This document shows, piece by piece, positions 8,231 to 59,225 of a stretch of DNA of 64,000 bases. The notes below the pieces were generated by a model. That model had not been told where the DNA came from. It searched no databases and saw only the letters and a program-made list of their open reading frames with translations. This stretch comes from Mustelus asterias (lineage: Eukaryota), in assembly GCF_964213995.1 (NCBI RefSeq), contig NW_027590142.1:992001-1056000 (forward strand), in the 5' to 3' direction. The stretch's first letter is position 1. Every line of letters begins with the position of its first letter. The translations under genes and the position numbers were made by a program.

Positions 8231-9097
8231 AAACATATACTCTCAGAAGAACACACAGAGACACACACACACAGACATACACACTATTACGGACAGTCTC
8301 ACAAACACAGAGACAGACAGAGACCATAAAGTGTTGATGTCAATTTCAGTTTACTCAACCTGCTGGGTAACGGAAGCAAACTTAAAACCGGTGTGTGGGT
8401 TTTATTGTGTGATGAGATAATGTATAAATGTATCACCATAGCCCAGGGTGGGGTTGTAGTTGATCATTTATCTGCTGTCTGTACTCCTGAACAAATGTCA
8501 AATTGGAGAGGTTATCAAGTTTGTATTATAATGTAATGATGTGAAATATGTGGGAGAAGAATTGGTGTGATAAAGGGTGGAAAACAAACTGGGGAATGAG
8601 ACTGAAGCTGCTGTGCAGACTGAATAGTTCTTGTTGTGTGAATGGAGGGACACATGTAGGGACGGATGGAGGGAGGAAGGGATGGACGGATCGAGGGACC
8701 GATCGAGGGAGGGAGCAATGGATGGAGGGATGGATGGGGGTGACCTGGGGGAAGTCATTGGGCAGAGACTGTGCTTGCTGCTGTTTCCCCTCCTGGCGCC
8801 AGGGGTCACTGGGACACTCCCTGCAGCTGCTGCTGCTGCTCCTCACAATGTCACATCTTGGCCGTACCCTGGACCAGCTGCAGCTCTTTGGCGGAACATC
8901 AGGAGCCAGTGGTGGGGAAGGACTGGCCGTCCTACTCCAGTGACGTCACCACCAGCCCCGACACCCGCCGTTTATTTTAAGAAAGAAAAAAAACGACTAT
9001 TCAGAAATGGAGAAAGTGACTGAAATTCTGAACCAGACTGGCCACCGGGAGGTGATTTATATGTAAATAAAAATACAATTATTAATTTAATATGAAA

Positions 9098-10098
9098 GAT
9101 GCCGCGACCAAAGCCATCCCAGACCTTAGGACGGTCGTGCTCGGCCCCGAAACTGCACGCAAACTTGAGACGGCGCAGGCGTGCGGTGGGATCCCGCCCG
9201 AGCGTTCCCCTGTTCGGGCGGAATTCCACATTGGCCCAAAACCTCAGCCCCCTCCCCTGGGTGAGGTGCCCCACAGCCTGAGCCGCCTCGCGGAAATGCC
9301 CTCCGTGCCTTTTTCTACCGCGCGGAGGCGTTTCCTGTGCGGGCTGCTGCTGCACACCCTCCACTACCGCCTCCTCGCCTGTCGCCCGGATACACCTTGG
9401 CGGGCCTTGTTGCCGCCGGGCGGCGGAGGTCCCCGCTGGAGCTCCCTCTACGGAGGGATCTCCCCCAATTACGTCGGGGACCTGGGGTGGAGGGTGATGC
9501 ATGCAGCAGTTCCGCACAACCGTAGGATTCACTGGTTCACGGGCTCCGAAGACTGCCCTTTCTGCGGCCTTGTGGAGTCCGTGGACCATGTCTATGTTGA
9601 GTGACTTAGGCTGCACTCCCTTTATGTTTTCCTGAAGAACCTTTTATTGATGTTCTGTTTGCACTTCAGTCCCACGCTCCTGATCTACGGACACCCGGTG
9701 CGGAGAGGGGAGGGTCGGGATGGCGACCTCCTAGTGAACCTGCTCCTGGGCCTGGCGAAACGCGCCATTTACCGGTCCAGGCAGCGGGCGATCGAGGGGG
9801 CCGTCCATCCTGACTGTCTTCCCCTCTACCGCGGCTACGTTCGCGGCCAGGTGTCCCTGGAGAGGGAGCATGCGGTGTCCACGGGCGAGGTTGACGCTTT
9901 CCGCGCCCGCTGGGCACCGCAGGGGTTGGGGTGCATTATTGACCCTAATAATCACATTTTAATTTGATGTTTTTAAGTTTCCTTTGTATTTTGATTTCTG
10001 TTCGGGCTGTTCCCCCTCCTTTTTGGGGAGCTGCCCCTTTTACTTTGTCCCGATTTAATCTGAGTTTGTTTACTTGGTTTGGTTTGACCTAAAAAGAG
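9098..10098 (+). mobile_element. Tx1-clade non-LTR retrotransposon 3' end, copy 1 (premature TGA at 9602)
   Basis: ORF2 C-terminal zf-RVT-like motif CPFCGLVESVDHVYVE, DLGWRVMH, LLLGLAKRAIY; T-rich 3' UTR ending gacctaaaaagag. Confidence 0.85.
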
Positions 10099-10099
10099 G

Positions 10100-10992
10100 T
10101 CCCCTGTTCGGGCGGAATTCCACATTGGCCCAAAACCTCAACCCCCCTCCCTGGGTGAGGTGCCCCACAGCCTGAGCCGCCTCGCGGAAATGCCCTCCGT
10201 GCCTTTTTCTACCGCGCGGAGGCGTTTCCTGTGCGGGCTGCTGCTGCACACCCTCCACTACCGCCTCCTCGCCTGTCGCCCGGATACACCTTGGCGGGCC
10301 TTGTTGCCGCCGGGTGGCGGAGGTCCCCGCTGGAGGTCCCTCTACGGAGGGATCTCCCCCAATTACGTCGGGGACCTGGGGTGGAGGGTGATGCATGCAG
10401 CAGTTCCGCACAACCGTAGGATTCACTGGTTCACGGGCTCCGAAGACTGCCCTTTCTGCGGCCTTGTGGAGTCCGTGCTCCATGTCTATGTTGAGTGTCT
10501 TAGGCTGCACTCCCTTTATGTTTTCCTGAAGAACCTTTTATTGATGTTTTGTTTGCACTTCAGTCCCACGCTCCTGATCTACGGACACCCGGTGCGGAGA
10601 GGGGAGGGTCGGGATGGCGACCTCCTCGTGAACCTGCTCCTGGGCCTGGCGAAACGCGCCATTTACCGGTCCAGGCAGCGGGCGATCGAGGGGGCCGTCC
10701 ATCCTGACTGTCTTCCCCTCTACCGCGGCTACGTTCGCGGCCAGGCGTCCCTGGAGAGGGAGCATGCGGTGTCCACGGGCGAGGTTGACGCTTTCCGCGC
10801 CCGCTGGGCACCGCAGGGGTTGGGGTGCATTATTGACCCTAATAATCACATTTTAATTTGATGTTTTTACGTTTCCTTTGTATTTTGATTTCTGTTCGGG
10901 CTGTTCCCCCTCCTTTTTGGGGAGCTGCCCCTTTTACTTTGTCCTGATTTAATCTGAGTTTGTTTACTTGGTTTGGTTTGACCTAAAAAGAG
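10100..10992 (+). mobile_element. Tx1-clade 3' end, copy 2 (open frame to stop)
   Basis: Near-identical to copy 1; ORF 10160-10861. Confidence 0.85.
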
Positions 10993-10993
10993 G

Positions 10994-11880
10994 TCGGGCG
11001 GAATTCCACATTGGCCCAAAGCCTCAGCCCCCCTACCTGGGTGAGGTGCCCCACAGCCTGAGCCACCTCGCGGAAATGCCCTCCGTGCCTTTTTCTACCG
11101 CGCGGAGGCGTTTCCTGTGCGGGCTGCTGCTGCACACCTTCCACTACTGCCTCCTCGCCTGTCGCCCGGATACACCTTGGCGGGCCTTGTTGCCGCCGGG
11201 CGGCGGAGGTCCCCGCTGGAGGTCCCTCTACGGAGGGATCTCCCCCAATTACGTCGGGGACCTGGGGTGGAGGGTGATGCATGCAGCAGTTCCGCACAAC
11301 CGTAGGGTTCACTGGTTCACGGGCTCCGAAGACTGCCCTTTCTGCAGCCTTGTGGAGTCCGTGGACCATGTCTATGTTGAGTGTCTTAGGCTGCACTCCC
11401 TTTATGTTTTCCTGAAGAACCTTTTGTTGATGTTTTGTCTGCACTTCAGTCCCACGCTCCTGATCTACGGACACCCGGTGCGGAGAGGGGAGGGTCGGGA
11501 TGGCGACCTCCTCGTGAACCTGCTCCTGGGCCTGGCGAAACGCACCATTTACCGGTCCAGGCAGCGGGCGATCGAGGGGGCCGTCCATCCTGACTGTCTT
11601 CCCCTCTACCGCGGCTACGTTCGCGGCCAGGTGTCCCTGGAGAGGGAGCATGCGGTGTCCACGGGCGAGGTTGACGCTTTCCGCGCCCGCTGGGCACGGC
11701 AGGGGTTGGGTGCATTATTGACCCCAATAATCACATTTTAATTTGATGTTTTTAAGTTTCCTTTGTACTTTGATTTCTGTTCGGGCTGTTCCCCCTCCTT
11801 TTTGGGGAGCTGCCCCTTTTACTTTGTCCTGATTTAATCTGAGTTTGTTTATTTGGTTTGGTTTGACCTAAAAAAAAGAG
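10994..11880 (+). mobile_element. Tx1-clade 3' end, copy 3 (1-nt deletion near the ORF end)
   Basis: Near-identical to copies 1 and 2; ends in an A-tail abutting a CR1 fragment. Confidence 0.85.
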
Positions 11881-12280
11881 GACAGAGGGTAGCGGTAGAG
11901 GGGTGATTTTCTGACTGGAAGGCTGTGACTAGCCATGATCCACAGGGATCAGTTCCGGAACCTTTGCTGTTCGTAGTATATGTAAATGATTTGGAGGAAA
12001 ATGTAGCTGGTATAATTGTAAGTTCACAGACGACACAAAAATTTGTGGAGTTGCGGAGAGTGAAGAGGATTGTCAGAGGATACAGCTACAGCAAAAGATA
12101 AACCGGTTGGAGACTGGGGCGGAAAAATGGCAGATGGAGTTTATTCTGGACAAGTGTGAGATAATGCATTTTGGAAGGTCCAATGCATGTCGGGATTATA
12201 TAGGAAAGATAGAACCCGTAGGAGTATTGATAAGCAGAGAGATCTCGACGTACATATCCACCGATCACTGATAACATCAA
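11881..12280 (+). mobile_element. CR1-type LINE RT fragment
   Basis: Similar to 61600-62100 (cagggatcagt...gacgacacaaaa...tggcagatggagttt). Confidence 0.8.
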
Positions 12281-18676: not shown

Positions 18677-19717
18677 ATGCGGCTCCCCGTTTTCACTCTG
18701 ATCTGGGTGACATTCATTGTTGATGAGTTTAATACTTTAAAAATGAGTTATTTTCTGGAGGAATAAAGTTGAAAAGCAGGACATTCATGTTATACAGGTA
18801 TTGGACAAATGAATTCTTGCGAGTGGTTTTAGTCTTTTGAAAATAGATTCGAAAAGCACACTGAAAAGGCGATTTCGAGAAATGGTACTCGGATTGGGAG
18901 ATGAGAGCTATCAGAATGCAAGATTATGATTACTTTCTCGACTGACCAAAGAAACTAACGCAAACCTGACTGATCTATTTATAATGATAACGAGGATTGG
19001 CGTGGTGGACGGGGAGAGGATGATTCCACTTGTAGGAGGAATCCAAATATATGTCCCAAAATTCTAATGAAACAAATAGATCAACTGGGAATCGGAGAGA
19101 AACATCTTTAGAAAGAGTTGGGTAGAATGTGACTCATATTAACACAATGAACACTTGAGGAGAGGAGCAAATACTTATTTAAAGGTAAACTAAACTAAAC
19201 AGCTGAGGAAGAAAGGGACAACTGCATTGAGAAGAGGCGAGAGGGAGGAATCTCCAGGGGACTGTAAACGGGAACATAGATCAGTTGGAGAGAATGTGGT
19301 ATGATTCAATACATTCAATACATATTTTTATGTTGCACTGTCAGTGAATTTTCTCCCTTAGTTCAATTGAACTTTTAATCAATGTTTTTCCTTTCTTTAA
19401 CCGTGTGTTTCAGATCTGAGCGATGGAGATTCTGTTCCTCAGCGGGAATCCTCACTCACACGGACAGAGGGAGAAGATGTCACTTTAAACTGCACCTTTA
19501 CCGACGATGCTTATTATTTATTTTGGTATCGTCAATACCCAGGAAAACAGCCTGAGTTTGCAGTCCGGAGAGACAAGAAGGGCGGTTTTGAATTAAAGGC
19601 GGATTTCGCTCGGACTCGGTTTTCTGATTCAGTCCAGCAGTCAGACAATTTGTACCGAGTGACTATTTCGGAGCTGCGGCTGTCTGACACCGCGGTCTAT
19701 TACTGTGCACAGAGTCT
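18677..19717 (+). pseudogene. TRAV/TRDV-like: TCR alpha/delta-type V segment: leader 18677-18722, intact V exon 19414-19717, leader donor mutated GT>AT
   Basis: Leader MRLPVFTLIWVTFIV then ATGAGT; V exon DGDSVPQRESSLTRTEGEDVTLNC...LFWYRQYPGKQPEF...LSDTAVYYCAQS with no stops. Confidence 0.92.
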
Positions 19718-19756
19718 CACAGTGATGAGAACGAGTGAAATCCTCGTACAAAAACT
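19718..19756 (+). other. 23-bp-spacer recombination signal sequence
   Basis: CACAGTG + 23 nt + ACAAAAACT. Confidence 0.95.
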
Positions 19757-21129
19757 GCCGCAAGTTTCTGAGTCACAGCTGCTGTCTGTCGAGTGTTGTT
19801 TCTAACAGCGGGTTATACACTAACACGTCAATACATTCCTGTGAACGCAAACCAGCCCACAATTCACACAAACACCATCTAAAATCGTTCACAGAATCCG
19901 TCTGATTATTACATTCACTGTGCGAGGGAAGAATTAGCTGTTGTTTATTTGGAATCACCGGGAAATCGGCACTAATATTGAGAATTCAAAATGCTGCAGG
20001 TAGCCTTGAACTAGTTGTACCCTTGTTCTGATGTTTCAAAGAAACTCGGGGCAAAGAAACGAATACAGTTTGGTTTGATATGTCAGTCAATAGTGTAAAC
20101 TGATGCCCGCCTGCTGAGGCAAATCCTCATAATCACATCAGCCTGATTAAACATCTCTCAATGTTACAGTAATGAAATAAAAGTATCAACTGGGAATCGA
20201 AGAGAAACTTCATTGGAAAGAGTTCGGAAGAATGTGACTCATATTAACACAATGAACACTTGACACATATTAAAACTCAGAATTCTTAACAGTAAAGGTA
20301 CAAAAGTTTATTTCAATACATGCTTAGAATCCAATGAACAATGATTAATATCTCTATTAATAATGTCGGAGGACAGGTTTGGTGTACTCTAGAGACTGGA
20401 ACATTTGGTAAGAAAATCGACTGAATGCAGAAACCTAATTGAGAAGAGCGTCAGAAAGTTCCTGAAGGACAACTAGGGATGGGCAATAAATAGCGGCCGA
20501 GCCAGCAAAGCCCACATGCCCGAAAGTCTTTCTTTAAAAGTCTGCTGTAATCACCAGAAGTGCTTTGGGAAATCGAAACCGCGGGATAAGTCTTTATGCT
20601 CAGACAAATATTTTGTTGGGATATGGGCCAAACGCGGGCAATTGGGACTTGCATAGTGGTTAGAAGAGGGTAGCATGGACAAGTTGGGCAGAAGGGTCTG
20701 TTTCCATGCTGTAAACCTCTATGACTCTATGACTCTGTGACTACTTCCATATCCGTTATTTCCCTGAATATCCACAAATCTATCAACTGCCTTCAAGAAA
20801 TCAAACGACTGTACAATCATCGCTCTCTTTGACACATAGAGTGCATTAAAGCGAATGTATGGTTTTTGACTGAGATGATTTTTGAGATATGACTCTGATT
20901 AGTTTTATTTCATGTTGTAATAACAGCACCAGAGTCTCCTATTCAGAGTTGCTCGTAAACGACAGAAACTACTATAAAGAGGGATTTTACATACACTGAC
21001 AGACATTCAGCACAAAGAACCTGATCATTCGGTTTAATTGGTTTTAATGAGATGATTTTGTTTCTATTAACTGTTCACAATCCAGCTCAGAGATCGGATT
21101 CAGTGAGAGGAGGTGAGAATGCCTTTGCT

Positions 21130-21606
21130 GGTTTTTGTACGGACTAACTGCGTCTCTGTAACTGCGGTTCAGCGCACACTGTTACAGATACACGGCAGAG
21201 ACAGAGACACGGACCCCGGTGATATTTAATGGAGCTGTTTTCTTGTCTCTGTCCAAATTAGCAGAAAACTGGTCCGAAACATCAGGAGACTTATCCCCCT
21301 TCCCCTTGCCGTAACTTTTCACTAAATATCTCGGAGCTTCTCCGGGGTACAGGATGTACCAGAATAGAGTTTGGTCAACGTACTTAGCTTTATAACTGCA
21401 GTTCAAAATTACCGTCTGTACTTCCTGAACCGTTAATTCAGGCGGCTCCTGGGAAACTGAAGTTTGGCCATTGGTTCCTGTAACAACATATAGACTGTGT
21501 GAGAAATCTGTGAGTGAATATAACCCATTGAACACACACTGAGGATTTGAGCACAGACTCACGGGGCAGCATGTCCATTATTATCAGTAGAACACGCAGG
21601 GAACAT
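21130..21606 (-). pseudogene. TRAV/TRDV-like: TCR alpha/delta-type V pseudogene (leader 21563-21606 frameshifted; V exon 21167-21477 with a stop before the second Cys)
   Basis: SVSQEPPELTVQEVQTVILNCSY...LFWYILYPGEAPRYL...SAVYL*QCAL; heptamer-like CGCAGTT, 21-nt spacer, nonamer ACAAAAACC at 21130-21138. Confidence 0.9.
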
Positions 21607-22532
21607 GTGGTTCCTGAATGGACAGTAAACAGCGACACTGTTTAAAATATGTTGTTGCTTCTAGTCTTATATCACGGAGTAAACTCAGACCAGAGGCAGC
21701 TTCAATAATTGGCAAATTGGGGGGTTTTCCCAGTGTTGCAATTGGCTGGTCCCCTTGAGATAACGTCAGCTGTGGACCAAACACTGTTAGTGGAGGACTA
21801 AACACAGCTGGCTCCCTCCAAACACATTCCATCCCGGGCTGTGTGTGTTTTTCTCACGCTCTTTCTCTCTCCATGAGAGGTGAATAACATTATCAGTTAC
21901 ACTGTCTCTTTCTCGGTTAACCCTCTTTCATTCGAACTCAATGTCCCCCTTTTTATAGATAGATTTTTCTTTCTAAATAAAGTTAAAAGTGAAATAAATA
22001 ATTTACCCTCATTTACTCTGCGGGTATTAATGAGTGCATCCACTGCATGAACATAATAGTAGCTACTGCTTTATTTATACCGGGGATAAGTAATCACCCA
22101 AGTCCACATTGACTTGCATTTCCACTGGGATTACTCTTATACTGGGAAAGTACTGATTCAATCAGTCATGATTTCTGTCCAGAAACTTCAGAATGTGACA
22201 ACTCTCAGTGTGCCTTTAATATTGGATCACATTTAACAGGTTCCCCTGACAGATAGGCATCTGATACAGAAAGATGGGAAGTACTGATTTATTAAGTTAT
22301 TCACTCGGGACATCTGTGGGTTTTGTGATTTTGATCAGGAAATGATTGGATTTATACAGGAATAATCTGAGCGCCAAATGTCACATTTCCCCAACAGTGA
22401 CAATCACTGACGTTAGGGAGGGAAAGCCACTCAGCTGGGGCAGCATTGTCAGGTTCATCATCTGTACATTTTCTCTGAAATTCAATGCAATGTGTTTTGC
22501 GGACAAGGAACCATTGATTGAGGACCTGCGCC

Positions 22533-22571
22533 AGTTTTTGTACGAAGCCCGCGGGATCCTCATTCAGTGTG
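22533..22571 (-). other. 23-bp-spacer recombination signal sequence
   Basis: CACACTG + 23 nt + ACAAAAACT on the minus strand. Confidence 0.9.
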
Positions 22572-23336
22572 GGTCTCAGTGCACAGTAATACACGGCGTT
22601 ATCTGTCATCTTCAAATCTTTCATGGACAAGTGAAAAGTGCTTTGTGTCTCGCTGAGATTCCAGCTGAAATGTTTAAAGCCGGGAGCCGTATCGGTAAAT
22701 CCATAACTCTCGGCTCTGAGCAGATACTGAGGAGCTCGGTGTGGATACTGGCGATACCAGAACAGGACATAGACTGTAGGTAAACCCTATACAGAGTAAC
22801 TGCAGGGTATTGCTGAATCTTCACCCTCTGCTGCTTCAACTCTTGGTTCTGACTGGGACACTGAGTCACCGTTATTCATCTCTGAAAACAGACAACAGAC
22901 ACGCAGCGGTTTAGAAGGAGTAACAACAACGGAATAATCGCCTAGAAATGGAAATGGGCAATGAATATGGTGATTGGCGGATTTCAGTCAAAGGTTCAAA
23001 ATGACCGTCCTGTGAGCAGGACAATAAGAAGTTTCACAACACCAGGTTAAAGTCCAACAGGTTTATTTGGTAGCAAAAGCCACACAAGCTTTCGGAGCTC
23101 CAAGCCCCTTCTTCAGGTGAGTGAAGGGGCTTGGAGCTCCGATAGCTTGTGTGGCTTTTGCTACCAAATAAACCTGTTGGACTTTAAGCTGGTGTTGTTA
23201 AACTTCTTATTGTGTTTACCCCAGTCCAACGCCGGCATCTCCACATCACCAGGACAATAACCAGAGACAGACAGACTTTCACCTCCATAGTTCCAGTCTG
23301 AACACCAGAAACAGAGGCAGTGATCACTGTCTGCAT
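22572..23336 (-). pseudogene. TRAV/TRDV-like: TCR alpha/delta-type V pseudogene (V exon 22572-22881, in-frame TAG at 22787-22789; degenerate leader ~23283-23336)
   Basis: GDSVSQSEPRVEAAEGEDSAIPCSYSV*...LFWYRQYPHRAPQYLL...DLKMTDNAVYYCALRP. Confidence 0.92.
23017..23260. mobile_element. Penelope-derived fold-back mini-element with hammerhead motif, flanked by caggacaataa repeats
   Basis: ~90-bp inverted arms; minus strand cac-CTGAAGA-a-ggggc-ttgga-gctcc-GAAA-gctt-gtg; direct repeats at 23017-23027 and 23250-23260. Confidence 0.85.
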
Positions 23337-40536: not shown

Positions 40537-42236
40537 ACCCCAGACAGTGAACATTATACCCCCCAGACCCGAATATAAAACAGTGAACATTATCCCCCAG
40601 ACCCGAATATAAAACTGTGAACATTATCCCCCCCAGACCCGGATATAAAACAGTGAACATTATCCTCCAGACCCGAATATAAAACAATGAACATTATCCC
40701 CCAGACCCGAATATAAAACAGTGAACATTATCCCCCACAGACCCGGATATAAAACAGTGAACCTTATCCTCCAGACCCGAATATAAAACAGTGAACATTA
40801 TCCCCTCGACCCGAATATAAAACAGTGAACATTATCCCCCCCAGACCCGAATATAAAACAGTGAACATTATCCCCTCGACCCAAATATAAAACAGTGAAC
40901 ATTATCCCCCAGACCCGAATATAAAACAGTGAACATTATCCCCTCGACCCAAATATAAAACAGTGAACATTATCCCCCAGACCTGAATATAAAACAGTGA
41001 ACATTATCCCCCAGACCTGAATATAAAACAGTGAACATTATCCCCTCGACCCGAATATAAAACAGTGAACATTATCCCCCAGACCCGAATATAAAACAGT
41101 GAACATTATCCCCTCGACCCAAATATAAAACAGTGAACATTATCCCCCAGACCTGAATATAAAACAGTGAACATTATCCCCCAGACCCGAATATAAAACA
41201 GTGAACATTATCCCCTCGACCCGAATATAAAACAGTGAACATTATCCCCTCGACCCGAATATAAAACAGTGAACATTATCCCCCAGACCCGAATATAAAA
41301 CAGTGAACATTATCCCCCCCAGACCCGAATATAAAACAGTGAACATTATCCCCCAGACCCGAATATAAAACAGTGAACAATATCCCCCCAGACCCGAATA
41401 TAAAACAGTGAACATTATCTCCAAGACCCGAATATAAAACAGTGAACATTATCCCCCAGACCTGAATATAAAACAGTGAACATTATCCCCCAGACCCGAA
41501 TATAAAACAGTGAACATTATCCCCTCGACCCGAATATAAAACAATGAACATTATCCCCTCCAGACCCGAATATAAAACAGTGAACATTATCCCCCAGACC
41601 CGAATATAAAACAGTGAACATTATCGCCCCCAGACCCGAATATAAAACAGTGAACATTATCCCCCAGACCCGAATATAAAACAGTGAACATTATCCCCTC
41701 GACCCGAATATAAAACAGTGAACATTATCCCCCAGACTCGAATATAAAACAGTGAACATTATCCCCCCCCGCCAGACCCGAATATAAAACAGTGAACATT
41801 ATCCCCCCAGACCCGAATATAAAACAGTGAACATTATCCCCCAGACCCGAATATAAAACAGTGAACATTATCCCCCAGACCCGAATATAAAACAGTGAAC
41901 ATTATCCCCCCCAGACCCGAATATAAAACAGTGAACATTATCCCCCCAGACCCGAATATAAAACAGTGAACATTATCCCCCCCAGACCCGAATATAAAAC
42001 AGTGAACATTATCCCCCCCAGACCCGAATATAAAACAGTGAACATTATCCCCCCCAGACCCGAATATAAAATAATGAACATTATCCCCCAGACCCAAATA
42101 TAAAACAGTGAACATTATCCCCCAGACCCGAGTATAAAACAGTGAACATTATCCCCCCCAGACCCGAATATAAAACAGTGAACATTATCCCTCAGACCCG
42201 AATATAAAACAGTGAACATTATCCCACCCAAGTGAA
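40537..42236. repeat. Minisatellite, ~33-37-bp unit agacccgaatataaaacagtgaacattat(c)n, roughly 50 copies
   Basis: Directly visible tandem array with a variable C-tract. Confidence 0.97.
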
Positions 42237-43831: not shown

Positions 43832-44824
43832 TCAATCCTGGATGTGATTAACAGCTGCAGTAACTGCAAAATCCAACTCCTGCAGGCAATTGTGAACTTG
43901 CAGATGTGTCAGCAAGTGGGATGACCGAGTGTATCCCTTCCCACACACAGAGCAGGTGAATGGCCTCTCCCCAGTGTGGGTGAGCTCATGTAAATGCAGG
44001 CTGCCAGACTGAGCGTATCCCTTCCCACACATGGAGCAAGTGAATGGTCTCTCCCCAGTGTGAGTGTGTTGATGTGCAGTGAGGATTGATAACTGCCTGA
44101 AACTCTTTCCACACTATGTGCAAATAAATGGCTTCTCCTCAGTGTGAATTCGCTGATGTGACAGGAGGCCGGATGAATTGGTGAATTCCCTCCCACACGT
44201 GGAACAGGTGAACGGCCTTTCCCCAGTGTGAACTCGCTTGTGTGCACTGAGGTTTGATGAAGACCTGAACCTCTTTCCACAGGAAGTGCAGCTGAACAGT
44301 CTCTCCTCTGTGTGAACTCGCTGGTGTGACAGCAGGTTAGATGACAGAGTGAATCTCTTACCACACACAGAACAGGTGAATGGCTTCTCTCCTGTGTGAA
44401 TTCGCTGGTGTGACCAAAGACCGGATGGCCCAGCAAAATCCTTCCCACACAAGGAGCCGGTGAACGATCTCTCCCCAGTGTGAACTCGCTGATGTGCACT
44501 GAGGTTGGATGAACATGAGAACCCCTTTCCACAGGTGGAGCAGCTGAACGGCCTCTCCTCAGTGTGAATTCGCTGGTGTAACAGCAGGTGGGATGAGGTA
44601 GTGAATCCTTTCCCACACACAGAACAGATGAATGGCCTCTCTCCAGTGTGACTGTGTCTATGGTTTTCCAGCAAGTACGGATAATTGAATCCTTTACCAC
44701 AATCATCACATTTCCATGGTTTCTCCATTTTCCCAGCCCCAATGTGACCGTATCGATGGATTTCCAACCGGGATGGATAATTGAACCCTTTACCACAATC
44801 CTAACATTTCCACGGTTTGTCCAT
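43832..44824 (-). pseudogene. C2H2 zinc-finger gene with two in-frame TAG stops (possible truncated product 44728-44114)
   Basis: MDKPWKC*DC..., then MEKPW plus 7 fingers (one degenerate), TAG at 44114-44116, fingers continue in frame to 43832. Confidence 0.85.
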
Positions 44825-45788
44825 GGTGCTGGTGTCCTTCTGTCTCTCCAGGTTGGTTGATTAGTTGAAGCCTCATCCACATACAGACCACATGTATGGT
44901 TTCTCCCCACTGTGAATGGTGTGGTGTTTTTCAGGCTGTGTAACTGGTTAAAGCTCTATCCACAGTCAGTTCACTGGAGCGCTCTCACTTGGGTGTGTGT
45001 GTGTGTGTCTCAGTTCTTTTTCTGTCACATTGAATTTTGAAAATTTCTTCCACTGACAAAACAGGGAACTATTTCTCCCTCCACTGTCAAAAGCAATCAT
45101 AAGCAATCACTGTCAAAAGCAGGTCATGATGAATCGAATGTCTGTGAATCCTCCTCTTCTAGTTCCCTGCAAAAAGAGTTTTAAAAAACTACTTCAGAAC
45201 TGACAATTTCAGTTTCCACGAAACATTTCTCCATCTTATTTATCTTGAGCTGTAATCCCCATCCCACACACTCTCTCTTGTCCCTGAGCTGAAATCAAAC
45301 TCATTGCCCCATCTCCACTCTGAGCCCAGCTCCCTCCAGCTGGATTCAGTCCTCCAGACCATGTGCAGATTGAGAGTACAATCAAGGAGTCAATTATTTT
45401 CCTTCCAAGTCAGGGGACGTGCAGCCCCACTGACTCTGTTGTTACCACAATGGGCACATGTGCTCTGCTCACCAATGAAACACCACAGTGACCATTAACA
45501 TGGGCCTGTTCCGAGGAAAGGCTCCATTTTATTTGTGCCACAACAGCAGGGGAATTACCTCCTGCACAGGCACAAAGGTATCATCAGTCACAGAAAATAA
45601 TTGCAGCTGGTGTCTCAAACCTCATTTTACCATTTGCTCCCAGACATTCTCCATTCAATTTTGAAATGCAAACTGAAATCTGGCATTTTGTGGTAAATTA
45701 AAAACACATTCTCATGGTCATTTTCAGAATGACTATTCCCGAGAACTAATTCCCAAGTCAGTAAATTAAAATTCTCATCAGCAATGTA

Positions 45789-48698: not shown

Positions 48699-48924
48699 AT
48701 TGACAGATCCATGCTCACTGCTTCCTGCCCTGGACGCAGAGTGCTGAAACTTTCCATGCAGGCTGCCAGACAGATAAATGTCTACATTACTGGAGTAAAA
48801 ATGTGTGGAATATACAGATTCACTTCATTCCCTTCAGTTGCTGCAAGTCCCCAATTTCCCCCAGAATGAGGAAAGAAATGGAAAGGGGGAGAAAAGAAAA
48901 AGAAAAGAAAAGATGTTGCCCAGA

Positions 48925-49392
48925 GGCGGAAGTTTCACTCTGAAGCTTATTGGCCAACGTCCGCATTGTGACGCCACGATAGAGCGTCTGAATCAGCCAA
49001 TAGGAATCTCTCTGCTCCGCAGTGACGTCTCCGGGTTCCAGTGCGCAGGCCCGGGCGCGCGGACCCGGGAGCCCCGCCCCCACCCATTGTTCCCCTCCCC
49101 CTACACCACATCGAACCAAGGTTTCCAGGCACCGGCTGACGGCTCCGTCAGAGAAGCCGCTCGGGGATCTCCCCCTCTCCCCGGCCCGGGACTGCAAATG
49201 TGCGAGGGAGAGGGGAAGCTGCGCATGTGCGGGGGAGAACCCACCCTCTGATCTTCATGCTGAGGTGTTGACCAATGGGAAGAGTTGGAGGACCGGAAGG
49301 ACTCTGGTCTTCCACCCAATCAGAGCGCGGGCTTTGTGTGAATGAAGATTGATCTTCAGATAGACTGAAACTTCCTCCTGTCGCCAACATCT
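48925..49392 (+). promoter_or_regulatory. CpG-island promoter and non-coding exon 1 of the 53-kb ZNF gene (donor GTGAGT at 49393)
   Basis: ETS CGGAAGT, several CCAAT, TGACGT, GC box, GCGCATG; paralogous to 58800-59220. Confidence 0.65.
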
Positions 49393-49398
49393 GTGAGT

Positions 49399-50637
49399 GG
49401 GAAAGATTGGATTGTCCAGCCAGTCCACCACATTGGCCGTTCGCTTTGCGTGTTGGCCAGTATAGTGTGCTCCAGGCAGGGGGCGGGCAGAGGATAAGGA
49501 GTTCAAGGCGGGCTTAATGCGTGCCTTTCGGTGAGCTTTTGGAAATGTGGCCGCTGGGAGGAACGCCTTGGTCGGCGTGAAGTTTCTGTTTCAAGTGCTT
49601 GGGTTCGTGACTTGTGCAAGAACTTTTTGTTTCGGCTGGGGCTTGTTGAATGCTGCTCTCGCTGGGATTCCTGTGCCTTGAATGGCGTGGCCCAGGTAGA
49701 TGCAATCTCGGAAGACCCAAGCCAGGGAGGAGCCATTTGGGAACTATGGTTTCGGAAGGTTCAGCCGCGGAAGGTGTGACCCCAGACGGTGCAGCCCCAG
49801 TGGGTGTGATTTTGGAAGTTCTGGCCCGGAGTGGTGGACTTTGGAGGACTGTAGTTGAGCGTTGTCGACTTCGGACGGTGGAATGTTGATGGGCGAAGCT
49901 CTGGAAGGCGATGCCTCCGAAATGTTTCACAATTGTATGGTTGTTCATGGATTGTTTGTTATTGTAATATGTGGTTTTCCTGTTATGGTAGTTGGTGGTT
50001 TGTTCCGGCCCCCGTCTATTTTCTTGCGTTATTTGTGGCCTGGGGGGCATCCCCCCCTGGATAAAGTCACCCCCGGGGGGTGTGACATCCACTTGGGGAA
50101 AGTTCTGGGTGGTGAAGCCCCGGACATAGTAACACCAGAGGGATTTTATTCTCCGGGAGAAAAATTGGGAAGGCAGGCCCGAACTGAGTACCCTGGAGAG
50201 ACTCTCCCACCGCCCCGGCTGAAATTCCGGAAGGGATTCCGGATTGAGTAGGCGGGGTGGTTTCCCCATTTCCCCCCCTCCGGCTGAACATCCGTAAGGT
50301 GTAACCCCCGGATATGAGTACCACTGGAGGGTTGCATCCCCCGGCAGGTGGACAAACCCAGGGGACGGTGCCCTTATGCTTCAGTGTTTATTTTTTGTTG
50401 TGTACAGTTGTAGTGTTGTGTTAATGTTTGTAGATTTGTAGATTATGATTTGTAAATGGAGGTGTATTTTGAGGGCAATGCCCTGGAAAACTGTAATTGA
50501 CGATGAACCCTTCCGAAATGGAAGGTAGTAACTGATAAATGGATGGCGTTAGCCATTGGTAATGTATTTTTTCACATTTGTTCTTTGTGTATTTGTAATT
50601 GTTTTGTATTAACGTATTTGTAATAAACAAAAAGGAA
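49399..50637 (+). mobile_element. Unclassified non-autonomous element, copy 1 (putative Tx1/L1-mobilised)
   Basis: Flanked by ccaacatctgtgagt (49384-49398, 50638-50652); ends AATAAA (50622) plus A-rich tail. Confidence 0.8.
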
Positions 50638-50652
50638 CCAACATCTGTGAGT

Positions 50653-51938
50653 GGGAAAGATTGGATTGTCCAGCCAGTCCACCATATTGGCCGTTCGCTT
50701 TGCGTGTTGGCCAGTATGGTGTGCTCCAGGCAGGGGGCGGGCAGGCAGAGGATAAGGAGTTCAAGGCGGGCTTAATGCGCGCCTTTCGGTGAGCTTTTGG
50801 AAATGTGGCCGCTGGGAGGAACGCCTTGGTCGGCGTGAAGTTTCTGTTTCAAGTGCTTGGGTTCGTGACTTGTGCAAGAACTTTTTGTTTCGGCTGGGGC
50901 TTGTTGAATGTTGCTCTCGCTGGGATTCCTGTGCCTTGAATGGCGTGGCCCAGGTAGATGCAATCTCGGAAGACCCAAGCCAGGGAGGAGCCATTTGGGA
51001 ACTATGGTTTTGGAAGGTTCAGCCGCGGAAGGTGTGACCCCAGACGGTGCAGCCCCAGTGGGTGTGATTTTGGAAGATCTGGCCCGGAGTGGTGGACTTT
51101 GGAAGACTGTAGTTGAGCTTTGTCGACTTCGGACGGTGTGATGTTGATGGGCGAAGCTCTGGAAGGCGATGCCTCTGGAATGTTTCACAATTGTATGGTT
51201 GTTAATGGATTGTTTGTTCTCGTAATATGTGGTTCTCCTGTTATATTAGTTGGTGGTTTATTCCGCCCTCCCCACCCCCGTCTATTTCCTTGCATTATTT
51301 GTGGCCTGGGGGGCATCTCCCCCCGCCCCCCTGGATAGAGTAACCCCCGGGGGGTGTAGCATCCGGTTGGGAACGTTCTGGGTGGTGAAGCCCCGGACAT
51401 AGTAACACCAGAGGGACCCCATTCTCCAGGAGAAAGTCCGGGAGAAAGTCGGGGAGTGCCCCCCACACCCCCCCCCCCCCCTGCAAAATGAGTACCCCGG
51501 AGAGCCTTTCCCCTCCGCCCCAGCTGAAACTCCGGAAGGGATACCGGACGGAGTAGGTCCAGGGTGGTATCCCCTTTTCCCCCCTCCGGTCGAACATCCG
51601 TAATGTGTAACCCCGGACATTAGTACCTCTGGAGGGTTGCATCCCCCGGTAGGGGACAAACCCAGGGGGCGGTGCCCTGGAGGATAGTGGTTATGCTTCA
51701 GTGTTTATTTTTGTTGTGTTGGACTAATGTTTGTTACTTTGTAGATTATGATTTGTAAATGGAGGTGTATTTAGAGGGCAATGCCCTGGAAAACTATGAC
51801 CGTTAGTGAACCCTACCTAAATAGAAGGTAGTGACTGATAAATGGATGGCGTTAGCCATTGGTAATATATTTTTCACATTTGTGCTTTGTGTATTTTAAT
51901 TGTTTTGTATTAACGTATTTGTAATAAACGAACAGAAA
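50653..51938 (+). mobile_element. Unclassified non-autonomous element, copy 2
   Basis: Same 5' start gggaaagattgg; AATAAA at 51923; followed by ccaacacctgtgagt (51939-51953). Confidence 0.8.
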
Positions 51939-52283
51939 CCAACACCTGTGAGTAAAACACTTTCTTCTCTCCCCCTTTCCATTTCTTTTCTAATTCTGGG
52001 GGAAATTGGGGACTTGCAGCAACTGAAGGGAAAGGAAGTGAATCCAGGGAGGCTGCAGACTCTGGTAAGGTTGGCCCAGGTCTCTCTCTCTCTCTCTTAA
52101 AGACATTGACATCCTTTGCTTCCTCAGCTTGACACATTGATTTGTTTGTCTAAAAGGATGGTCTCTTTCCTAATGTTCACAATGAAAGGGCTGGTTTCCC
52201 CAGGAGATGGCTGACATTTAAGGAGACAGTAAATTAATATAGGACAGAGATATGTCTACTGTTATTAAATGGTCCATATCAGA

Positions 52284-52631
52284 TCATAGAAATCATAGAA
52301 ACCCTACAGTACAGAAAGAGGCCATTTGGCCCATCGAGTCTGCACCAACCATAATCCCACCCAGGCCCTACCCCCATATCCCGACACATTTACCCACTAA
52401 TCCCTCTAACCTATGCATGTCAGGACACTAAGGGGCAATTTTAGCATGGCCAATCAACCTCACCCGCACATCTTTGGACTGTGGGAGGAAACCGGAGCAC
52501 CCGGAGGAAACCCACGCAGACACGAGGAGAATGTGCAAACTCCACACAGACAGTGACCCAAGCCGGGAATCGAACCCAGGTCCCTGGAGCTGTGAAGCAG
52601 CAGTGCTAACCACTGTGCTACCGTGCCGCCC
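52284..52631 (-). mobile_element. HE1 SINE, full length
   Basis: Near-identical reverse complement of 6415-6763. Confidence 0.92.
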
Positions 52632-53565
52632 ATATATTATTTATTGTCTTGTAATAAAATATAGTTAATATCTTTTCTTGCTGTGTAATGTAGTACCTTA
52701 GCTATATTTCCAGTCATCTCTTCCGTCAGAGTGTTGTATTATCTGGGTTTCTCTTCCTCCGGGACCAGTGAAGGCTGAAGATCATTGAATATATCATTGA
52801 GGGGACAAGGGAGTCAAGAGTTATGGGGAAAATGGAGAGAAAGTTAAGATGAGGAGGGATTTCTTCACTTGAGGATGTGGTGAAGTTTTGGCATTCTCTA
52901 CCCCAGAAACCTAGTCATAAAGTATGCTCAAGCAGGGGATTGATATATTTCTAGACATTGAAGATATCTAGAGATATGGGGGATAATCTGGCAGAGGTAA
53001 ATCGGTCAGTGAGCTCATTGAATGGTTCAGCAGGCTCGATGGGCCGAATAGTCAACAGCAGCAACTATTTCTTCAGATCTGTGTCCAGGGCAGGAAGCAG
53101 TGAGCATGGGTCTGTCAATCAGCCTGAATTTACAGCTCTTGGGGAATGAGAGAGGAAAGCACATTCCATAGAAACTTGAATTGTCTGTTTTGAATTTCTA
53201 TCCTGTACTGACAGTGAGATATTTTCTAAATTGTTTTTACAGGATATTGGAAGAGGAGAAATCACTGACAGAAATCTCAGACGTGATGTGCATTTTGGAC
53301 AAAATCACTCGATTCCTTGGGACGTGAATATCAGAGAAATGTTTGACCGGTCTGTCAACTTCAAAAGATTTTAAACATTAGTGTGGATGGACAAGCAGCG
53401 AGACACACACACACCCGAGTGAGAGTGTTCCAGTGCACTGACTGTGGAAAGAGCTTTCACCAGTTACACAGCCTGACATCCATTCACACTGGGGAGAAAC
53501 CGCACACCTGTTTTCACGGCTTCAACGGGTTGTCTGAACTGCAGGGATACAAGGAGACTCAAAAC

Positions 53566-54156
53566 ATGGAAAAACCGTGGATATGTGTGGACTGCGGGAA
53601 GGGATACAGAGCCCCATCAGAGCTGCAAGCTCATCGACGCATTCATACGGGAGAAAGGCCATTCACCTGCTCTTGGTGTGGGAAAGGATTCACTCGGTTA
53701 TCCATCCTGCAGTCACACCAGCGTGTTCACACTGGGGAGAGACCCTTCATCTGTTCTGAGTGCGGGAAGGGATTCAGTCATTCATCCAGTCTGCAGACAC
53801 ACCAGCGAGGTCACACTGGGGAGAGACCATTCACCTGCTCTCACTGTGGGAAGGGATTCAGAGATTTATCCAACCTGCAGACACACCAGCGAGTTCACAC
53901 AGGGGAGAGACCGTTCACCTGCTCTCAGTGTGGGAAGGGATTCACTCAGTCATCCACCCTGCAGTCACACCAGCGAGTTCACACAGGGGAGAGGCCATTC
54001 ACCTGCTCTGTGTGTGAGAAGAGATTCAGTCTTTCATTCCACCTGCGGAGACACCAGCGAGTTCACACTGGGGAGAGACCGTTCGCCTGCTCTCAGTGTG
54101 GGAAGGGATTCACTCAGTTATCTAACCTGGAGACACACCAGCGAGTTCACAAGTGA
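53566..54156 (+). CDS. C2H2 zinc-finger protein, 7 fingers from MEKPW (frame open upstream to ~53383)
   Basis: Tandem fingers with TGERPF linkers; acceptor TTTTTACAG at ~53241. Confidence 0.85.
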   Translation: MEKPWICVDCGKGYRAPSELQAHRRIHTGERPFTCSWCGKGFTRLSILQSHQRVHTGERPFICSECGKGFSHSSSLQTHQRGHTGERPFTCSHCGKGFRDLSNLQTHQRVHTGERPFTCSQCGKGFTQSSTLQSHQRVHTGERPFTCSVCEKRFSLSFHLRRHQRVHTGERPFACSQCGKGFTQLSNLETHQRVHK

Positions 54157-58799: not shown

Positions 58800-59225
58800 C
58801 AATGGGTGGGGGCGGGGCTCCCGGGTCCGCGCGCCTGAACCCGGAGACGTCACCGCGGAGCAGAGTGATTGCTATTGGCTGATTCAGGCAGGGCTCCATT
58901 GTGCCGTCACAATGACTCAGAGGGGCGTTCCCAGCACACAGTGTCCCATTGGCAGCAATGTCACTGGTTACAGAAGCAGCACACTGCGGATTGGACACCA
59001 GCTCAGCGCAGCAGGCGGTCAAAGCCCCGCCCACCCCCACGTGGGCCCCGGTTCCGCCCCCTTATTGTCTACATGCGGCAGATTGACCAATGGGAACGTG
59101 TGGAGGACCGGATGGGCGCTGGTCCTCCAGCCAATCAGAGTCCGGGACTTGTGTGCATGGCCGTATGGAGCTTCCTCCATTGTTGCTCCTCTCTCTCTGG
59201 ATGAAGATTGAGCTTAAAACAGACT
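58800..59225 (+). promoter_or_regulatory. CpG-rich promoter of the 60.5-kb ZNF gene
   Basis: Contains blocks homologous to 48990-49090 (inverted) and 49270-49365 (direct); CCAAT and GC boxes. Confidence 0.55.

Follow-up and report, generated by a model that had tools for sequence, protein, structure and literature searches.

A non-coding retroelement, here termed E, occupies one base in the 5' region of zinc-finger (ZNF) genes. It is likely a passenger that is copied by target-primed reverse transcription (TPRT) with the enzyme of a LINE we take to be Tx1-like, while its co-transcribed flanks likely provide the promoter and steer the site. Two units of E lie in the window, the whole 64,000-nucleotide stretch of Mustelus asterias DNA analyzed here. 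They have the layout R-E1-R-E2-R that a preliminary description had reported, with R at 49384, 50638 and 51939 and the same unit boundaries. R is the 15-bp word CCAACA(T/C)CTGTGAGT. The window contains no further match at two or fewer mismatches, and none of 100 shuffles reached three matches. The features are as follows.

9086..11881, + strand: three head-to-tail, 5'-truncated LINE 3' ends at a site other than R, 96-97% like the young intact LINE subfamily discussed below.
49270..49392, + strand: conserved 5' region of ZNF paralogues, with CCAAT boxes at 49272 and 49316 and a putative short non-coding exon 1 ending in ...ATCT.
49384..49398, + strand: R1, the 15-bp target word, consisting of the last 9 bases of the putative exon and the GTGAGT donor-like hexamer (49393-49398).
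49399..50637, + strand: E1, a short-form unit of 1239 bp, with AATAAA at 50622.
49498..49779, + strand: 93-codon open frame, stop to stop, without Met or homologue, containing the 82-codon frame of the preliminary description.
50638..50652, + strand: R2, the regenerated target word between E1 and E2.
50653..51938, + strand: E2, a divergent sub-lineage of 1286 bp, with AATAAA at 51923.
51939..51953, + strand: R3, with one substitution, followed by native AAAACAC... as at empty sites.
51954..53242, + strand: remainder of putative intron 1, ending in the acceptor-like site TTTTTACAG (from the sequence).
53347..54156, + strand: C2H2 zinc-finger frame of the host gene, with a MEKPW start at 53566 (ORF list, Pfam).

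Both units begin with GGGAAAGATTGG and end in AATAAA plus 10 A-rich bases, which confirms the shared termini noted earlier. The reported contrast between near-identical 5' parts and diverged 3' parts is also real, as E1 and E2 share 98.0% identity in their first 500 nt but 88.4% in their last 600 nt. E1 shares 99.3-100% identity over its last 600 nt with units at other loci, whereas E2 has only three close relatives, all in duplicates of the window's ZNF gene. E2 is thus not a simple local duplication of E1, since each has nearer relatives elsewhere. As previously observed, terminal inverted repeats are lacking (none among the 25 longest inverted pairs), and inspection of the sequence revealed no TG...CA long terminal repeats on E, so that E carries the ends of neither a DNA transposon nor an LTR element. 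An Rfam search of 48700-52300 returned no match at the gathering score and two sub-threshold snoZ6 matches only. Elsewhere in the window, three frames at 19401-22786, next to the ZNF cluster, resemble antigen-receptor V segments, presumably of the T-cell receptor type, and a 34-bp minisatellite with 48.5 copies and 92% matches spans 40544-42225.

The block at 49270..49392 also precedes arrays and empty sites at other loci, and an acceptor-like site similar to that of the window is found before other ZNF frames. Judged from sequence, the block ending in ...ATCT may represent exon 1, and the GTGAGT of R its splice donor. If GTGAGT is the donor, E insertions would be intronic and hence tolerated. 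GTGAG is retained at 15/15 sites downstream of young LINE copies, where R bases 1-5 vary. When contigs of relatives from 4 of 18 presumed RNA runs were compared with the empty paralogue L129, no donor joint was present among the matches listed, and one contig reads through. Two pattern searches of the genome for processed exon-junction copies each gave 0. Two neighboring paralogues differ at R. A divergently oriented ZNF paralogue at 48828-48941 (-) and 43909-44955 (-) shares the promoter region and has an R without the GTGAGT part, and the paralogue at 59199 (+) has no intact R.

E is a young family of approximately 200 copies of 1.2-1.9 kb. Pattern counts across the genome gave 209 exact tails and 157 exact heads, and a DNA search with E, in which 25 of 346 candidates were scored, yielded at least 103 matches, with 97-100% identity for the best of them. 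The 105 complete units extracted include 70 of ~1.86 kb and 28 of ~1.24 kb. The usual unit is therefore 1.86 kb long, unlike the ~1.25 kb given before. The long form contains an internal duplication of ~615 bp whose parts are 86% identical. Across 150 random pairs, units average 98.3% identity at their 5' end and 92.6% at their 3' end. In a variant present at five loci (L079, L081, L131, L132, and L133), the first 118 bases are replaced by a different head of ~150 bp, and such copies occur both on and off target. Rfam detected no RNA family in the E head or the variant head, so the tRNA, 5S, or 7SL head of a SINE is missing, and no U1/U2 snRNA-derived head of the kind carried by SINEU was found on E. 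By its head, E is neither a SINE nor a SINEU. The E tail contains a conserved 3' hairpin, GGATGGCGTTAGCCATTGG; folding of the whole tail gave z-scores of -0.85 and -1.16, and compensatory changes were not observed.

E also lacks coding capacity for a reverse transcriptase (RT) or endonuclease, as judged from its frames, Pfam, and comparison with the LINE. The sense frame at 49498..49779 is probably non-coding. It is open in 94/101 E heads, which the youth of E alone can explain. E1 additionally has a 288-codon antisense frame, and a Pfam search gave no match for either of the two. The resemblance to a Tx1 ORF1 suggested for the 82-codon frame did not hold up, as the frame has neither a Pfam match nor similarity to the ORF1 or ORF2 of the LINE. 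Protein comparison of this frame gave a best Atlas score of 0.81, a low recognition, and 0/140 candidates among longer proteins. With many non-coding copies, 3'-anchored truncation, and target duplications, E is the non-autonomous retroelement family that had been proposed.

Insertion of E is strongly biased toward R. An R-type word directly follows 138 E tails, against 209 tails counted with a slightly different pattern. A family is regarded as target-specific when over 20% of its flanks are of one sequence type (PMC4494074), and E exceeds this proportion by tail and also per locus. The arrays comprise from one to at least six units and follow exon-like sequence that closes with R; at their far side comes either R with the native AAAACAC sequence or another element. 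Clustered at 95% identity, the downstream flanks of the arrays represent at least 17 distinct classes of ZNF intron (19 clusters minus two that are next-unit junctions), and 54 upstream junctions form 33 clusters, five of which are off-target composites. Empty paralogous sites with a single R, anticipated for a site-specific element, were found. For one strict target variant, 22 places are empty and 33 are filled; 24 of the filled ones are true and 9 are off-target composites. Truncated copies also occur on target, with 41 bp (L112) and 194 bp (L158) of E between 14-15 bp duplications, and some on-target units lack 17-37 bases of the E head. Upstream and downstream R are identical in 58/105 units, and at some loci rare R variants flank the unit on either side, while other loci show a mixture. 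In one pair only (L085/L143), the upstream R variant travels with the element haplotype, which is suggestive. Thus, the proposed site-specificity at a multicopy ZNF exon-1 donor stands as a strong preference for R but not as a strict rule, given 32 off-target loci, and the use of R as a donor is putative. The specificity of E for R is a preference.

The off-target copies indicate how E inserts. The 32 loci examined were drawn from the first 100 listed tails and one array. Most (26/32) are 5'-truncated and 3'-anchored at the same end, with lengths from 71 bp to 1.2 kb. Duplications of 9-17 bp flank 13/32 loci, in one case after a poly(A) run; 8/32 have long duplications of 130-878 bp (130, 348, and 878 bp perfect, the others chimeric), and 11/32 have none. 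One E copy is poly(A)-tailed (L087). At L052 (G000:C3:24288900-24296900), an off-target E with the perfect 130-bp duplication adjoins an oppositely oriented LINE 3' fragment. The combination of 3'-anchored truncation and duplications off target argues for RNA-mediated insertion and against a recombinase or DNA transposon; E was likely inserted via RNA by TPRT.

The off-target sites share a minimal sequence and otherwise fall into two classes. Of these sites, 30/32 begin with YC. The classes, CC(A)(A) (n=13) and TCCCT(G/A)AT-like (n=17), match the two source flanks. Site class tracks the E haplotype (17:0 vs 3:7, p=0.0001; 10:0 vs 3:7, p=0.003 without 7 repeat-borne loci), with Fisher p values that are optimistic because related daughter copies are not independent. 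The clustering of site-class labels by E haplotype lies below all 500 shuffles.

Flanking sequence also accompanies E at its 5' side. Among the 32 off-target copies, none begins with the first base of E unless R precedes it. In the founder on C19, E with 25 bases of the ZNF exon end lies in an LTR-like repeat of ~185 bp with CCAAT, TATA, and AATAAA motifs, and its insertion duplicated ~212 bp of flank. A 27-nt marker from this flank sits 5' of E on C3, C13, C16, and C26 and is absent from the downstream flanks of these copies. In all four daughters, E is inserted into further copies of the CCAAT/TATA repeat, 67-86% alike, always at the same base, and the 5' junctions of the daughters show a transition from local to C19 sequence inside the repeat. 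This shows that E was transcribed from a flanking promoter in the C19 line and that 5' ends were formed by homology. The earlier suggestion that transcription depends on a flanking promoter is borne out by the marker in the four daughters. The daughters seem to follow the founder's flank, with promoter and target both derived from co-transcribed flanks. Pairing of a read-through RNA 3' end with the target has been shown for R2Ol (PMC6530143), and flank-driven transcription and read-through pairing have been proposed for SINEU (PMC4494074). We raise tentatively, at somewhat less than even chance, that target choice is largely RNA-programmed, the endonuclease requiring approximately YC and the co-transcribed flank giving the promoter, the priming site, and the 5' homology. 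If so, each source copy would pass its address to its daughters, and one enzyme lineage would serve three addresses: R, TCTCT 45 bp upstream, and the CCAAT/TATA repeat. Crossover at the arrays would then exchange promoters between ZNF paralogues.

The candidate enzyme source is a LINE family, presumably Tx1-like from its sequence likeness. Many copies have an intact ORF2 of 1304 aa, and most of these are on ZNF-cluster contigs. Pfam identifies an APE endonuclease, an RT, and a zf-RVT in ORF2 and a zf-CCHC in ORF1, with zf-RVT and zf-CCHC below the curated cut-off; this domain set agrees with that of the Tx1 clade. In the young intact subfamily, 19 of 20 copies end at TCTCT or TCACT and one is off target. 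The TCTCT and TCACT ends are found either ~45 bp 5' of R or within the head of the next copy, which has a similar sequence. An older branch ends at the R base itself, with 163 junctions that include some off-target look-alikes, and its copies are 90-97% alike at the 3' end. The R-site copies are flanked by 15-bp duplications, both in a full-length copy stacked behind E (L133) and in fragments of 23-386 bp. A single change on the tree is enough to separate the R-site from the TCTCT-site class, and none of 20 R-site LINE loci has an ORF of at least 1200 aa.

The link to a Tx1-type retrotransposon made in the preliminary description thus gains a candidate partner, a Tx1-like LINE with the same insertion bond and the same 15-bp duplication as E. 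Most SINE-LINE pairs have common tails. E and the LINE have no detectable similarity (best blastn E-value 0.054, best tblastn E-value 0.042), and only the last A-rich bases look alike. The partnership is inferred from the shared insertion bond, as in the argument for SINEU and Tx1-Mar, with no sequence in common; E was probably mobilized by the Tx1-like LINE enzyme. Most R-site LINE copies are older than E, which would make the intact young subfamily the likelier recent donor.

Several observations concern the LINE itself. At L091-L110 (e.g., G000:C71:11566800-11576799), tandem young copies of ~7 kb with an intact 1304-aa ORF2 occupy TCTCT upstream of R. The head of these copies resembles a degenerate ZNF exon, after which comes a degenerate tRNA-like piece that we take to be closest to tRNA-Val. 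The structure of this head suggests a target shift after 5' transduction. At L031, L032, L104, and L109, short tRNA-containing inserts with a LINE tail occupy the R bond, and Rfam matches tRNA in L032 and L104. On present sequence grounds, these inserts are putative further passengers at this bond.

Together, these data fit a pathway in which Pol II would start in the host promoter and produce a transcript R-E-R that ends after the AATAAA of E. At the left edge of R, the LINE ORF2 protein would nick the bottom strand, and the 3' end of the RNA would pair with the nick through a few target bases gained by read-through. The cDNA end would then anneal to the matching upstream flank, a step seen in part, to give an invariant 5' junction. 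R would be regenerated, as is observed, so that units stack. Gene duplication and inter-array recombination, both also observed, would multiply and reshuffle the units.

Site choice by the endonuclease alone is the stated norm for such elements (PMC4494074), and the YC shared by nearly all off-target sites agrees with it. E would then have its own Tx1 partner, unfound or extinct, bearing the E tail, and scoring of best candidates only could miss a rare partner of this type. We consider this unlikely, as no long coding element with the E termini is present among ~110 E-bearing loci, target class is linked to E haplotype, and the daughters of the C19 founder landed according to its flank.

Duplication of ZNF genes also contributes to the distribution of E. 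The window's ZNF gene is near-identical to copies on C124, C87, C131, C71, and C107 (97.6-99.7% over 6 kb downstream), and a sixth duplicate is 94% identical over 2.2 kb. The upstream 3.5 kb is common to the window and C87 only, and four other duplicates have a different upstream region; one further duplicate could not be compared over that span. Since near-identical gene duplicates carry relatives of the window's E2, this unit inserted once and was then multiplied with the gene. Many E copies stem from ZNF gene duplication and recombination instead of new insertion, and because the window pair is common to these duplicates, copy counts overstate insertions. Array length differs between the duplicates. 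E arrays also coincide with promoter-region switches, in which one ZNF coding region has different upstream regions (C110, C124, C131, C71, and C107). The arrays seem to sit at recombination points through which a single coding region becomes joined to different promoters.

These duplicates, at least five of them near-identical with related arrays and four with a different upstream promoter region, together with the imported R variants inside arrays, are what would be expected if one or a few old insertions had spread by ZNF duplication, unequal crossover, and gene conversion, the apparent specificity being hitch-hiking. Duplication certainly contributes. As the sole cause it is very improbable, being contradicted by the downstream intron classes, which number at least 17, by truncations at R with independent breakpoints, by the scattered truncated copies that carry duplications, and by the use of the R bond in a separate LINE lineage. 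Integration of E as a DNA circle by site-specific recombination of the tyrosine-recombinase type, with R as core, would account for the fixed ends, direct 15-bp repeats, and tandem arrays, which resemble an att-core pattern, yet it is hardly credible beside a 3' end that stays fixed while 5' truncation varies, duplications that differ from R in sequence and length, the poly(A)-tailed copy L087, and 5' transduction.

The passenger reading of E, copied by TPRT at a ZNF 5' base, adds the 5' region of genes in a protein-coding family to the safe landing sites known for target-specific retroelements of vertebrates; roughly half of the sites of one target variant are occupied. The founder on C19, together with its four daughters, constitutes a natural target switch, which makes the respective shares of endonuclease and RNA flank in the specificity of APE-type LINEs testable, a question that bears on programmable gene insertion. 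A search of the published literature found no report of E or of a ZNF target, and a family name may already be deposited in Repbase or Dfam.

Among known systems, R2 and R1 of rDNA form their 5' junctions by homology, as seen in the C19 daughters. The target of NeSL-type elements adjoins a splice donor. NeSL and other spliced-leader-exon elements, named in PMC4640811, share with E a short, multicopy, exon-like target, but they are autonomous, use a restriction-like endonuclease, and insert into nematode SL RNA genes. R2 and R1 resemble the model for E in target co-transcription and in 3' read-through pairing with target DNA, described for R2Ol (PMC6530143); unlike E, they are autonomous and inhabit Pol I-transcribed rDNA, whereas E would use Pol II ZNF promoters and is a likely passenger that switched target after a stray insertion. 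Tx1L, Keno, Kibi, and Koshi, like the present system, combine APE-endonuclease LINE machinery with a multicopy target and a fixed insertion point (PMC4494074, PMC4640811). The Tx1 targets listed in the parts of these sources drawn on here comprise transposons, snRNA, tRNA, and rRNA genes, spliced-leader exons, microsatellites, and telomeres, with no protein-coding gene family among them, and E differs further in encoding nothing (PMC4494074, PMC4640811). SINEU-1/2/3 of crocodilians, with Tx1-Mar, are like E in being non-autonomous and inserting in tandem, and they lack a Pol III promoter, as E apparently does; their partnership with the Tx1 group was likewise argued from a common target preference, and their 5' extensions suggest transcription from the flank (PMC4494074). 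SINEUs are short, have U1/U2 heads, and target Mariner, whereas E is 1.2-1.9 kb long, has no head recognized by Rfam, and targets a protein-coding gene family (PMC4494074).
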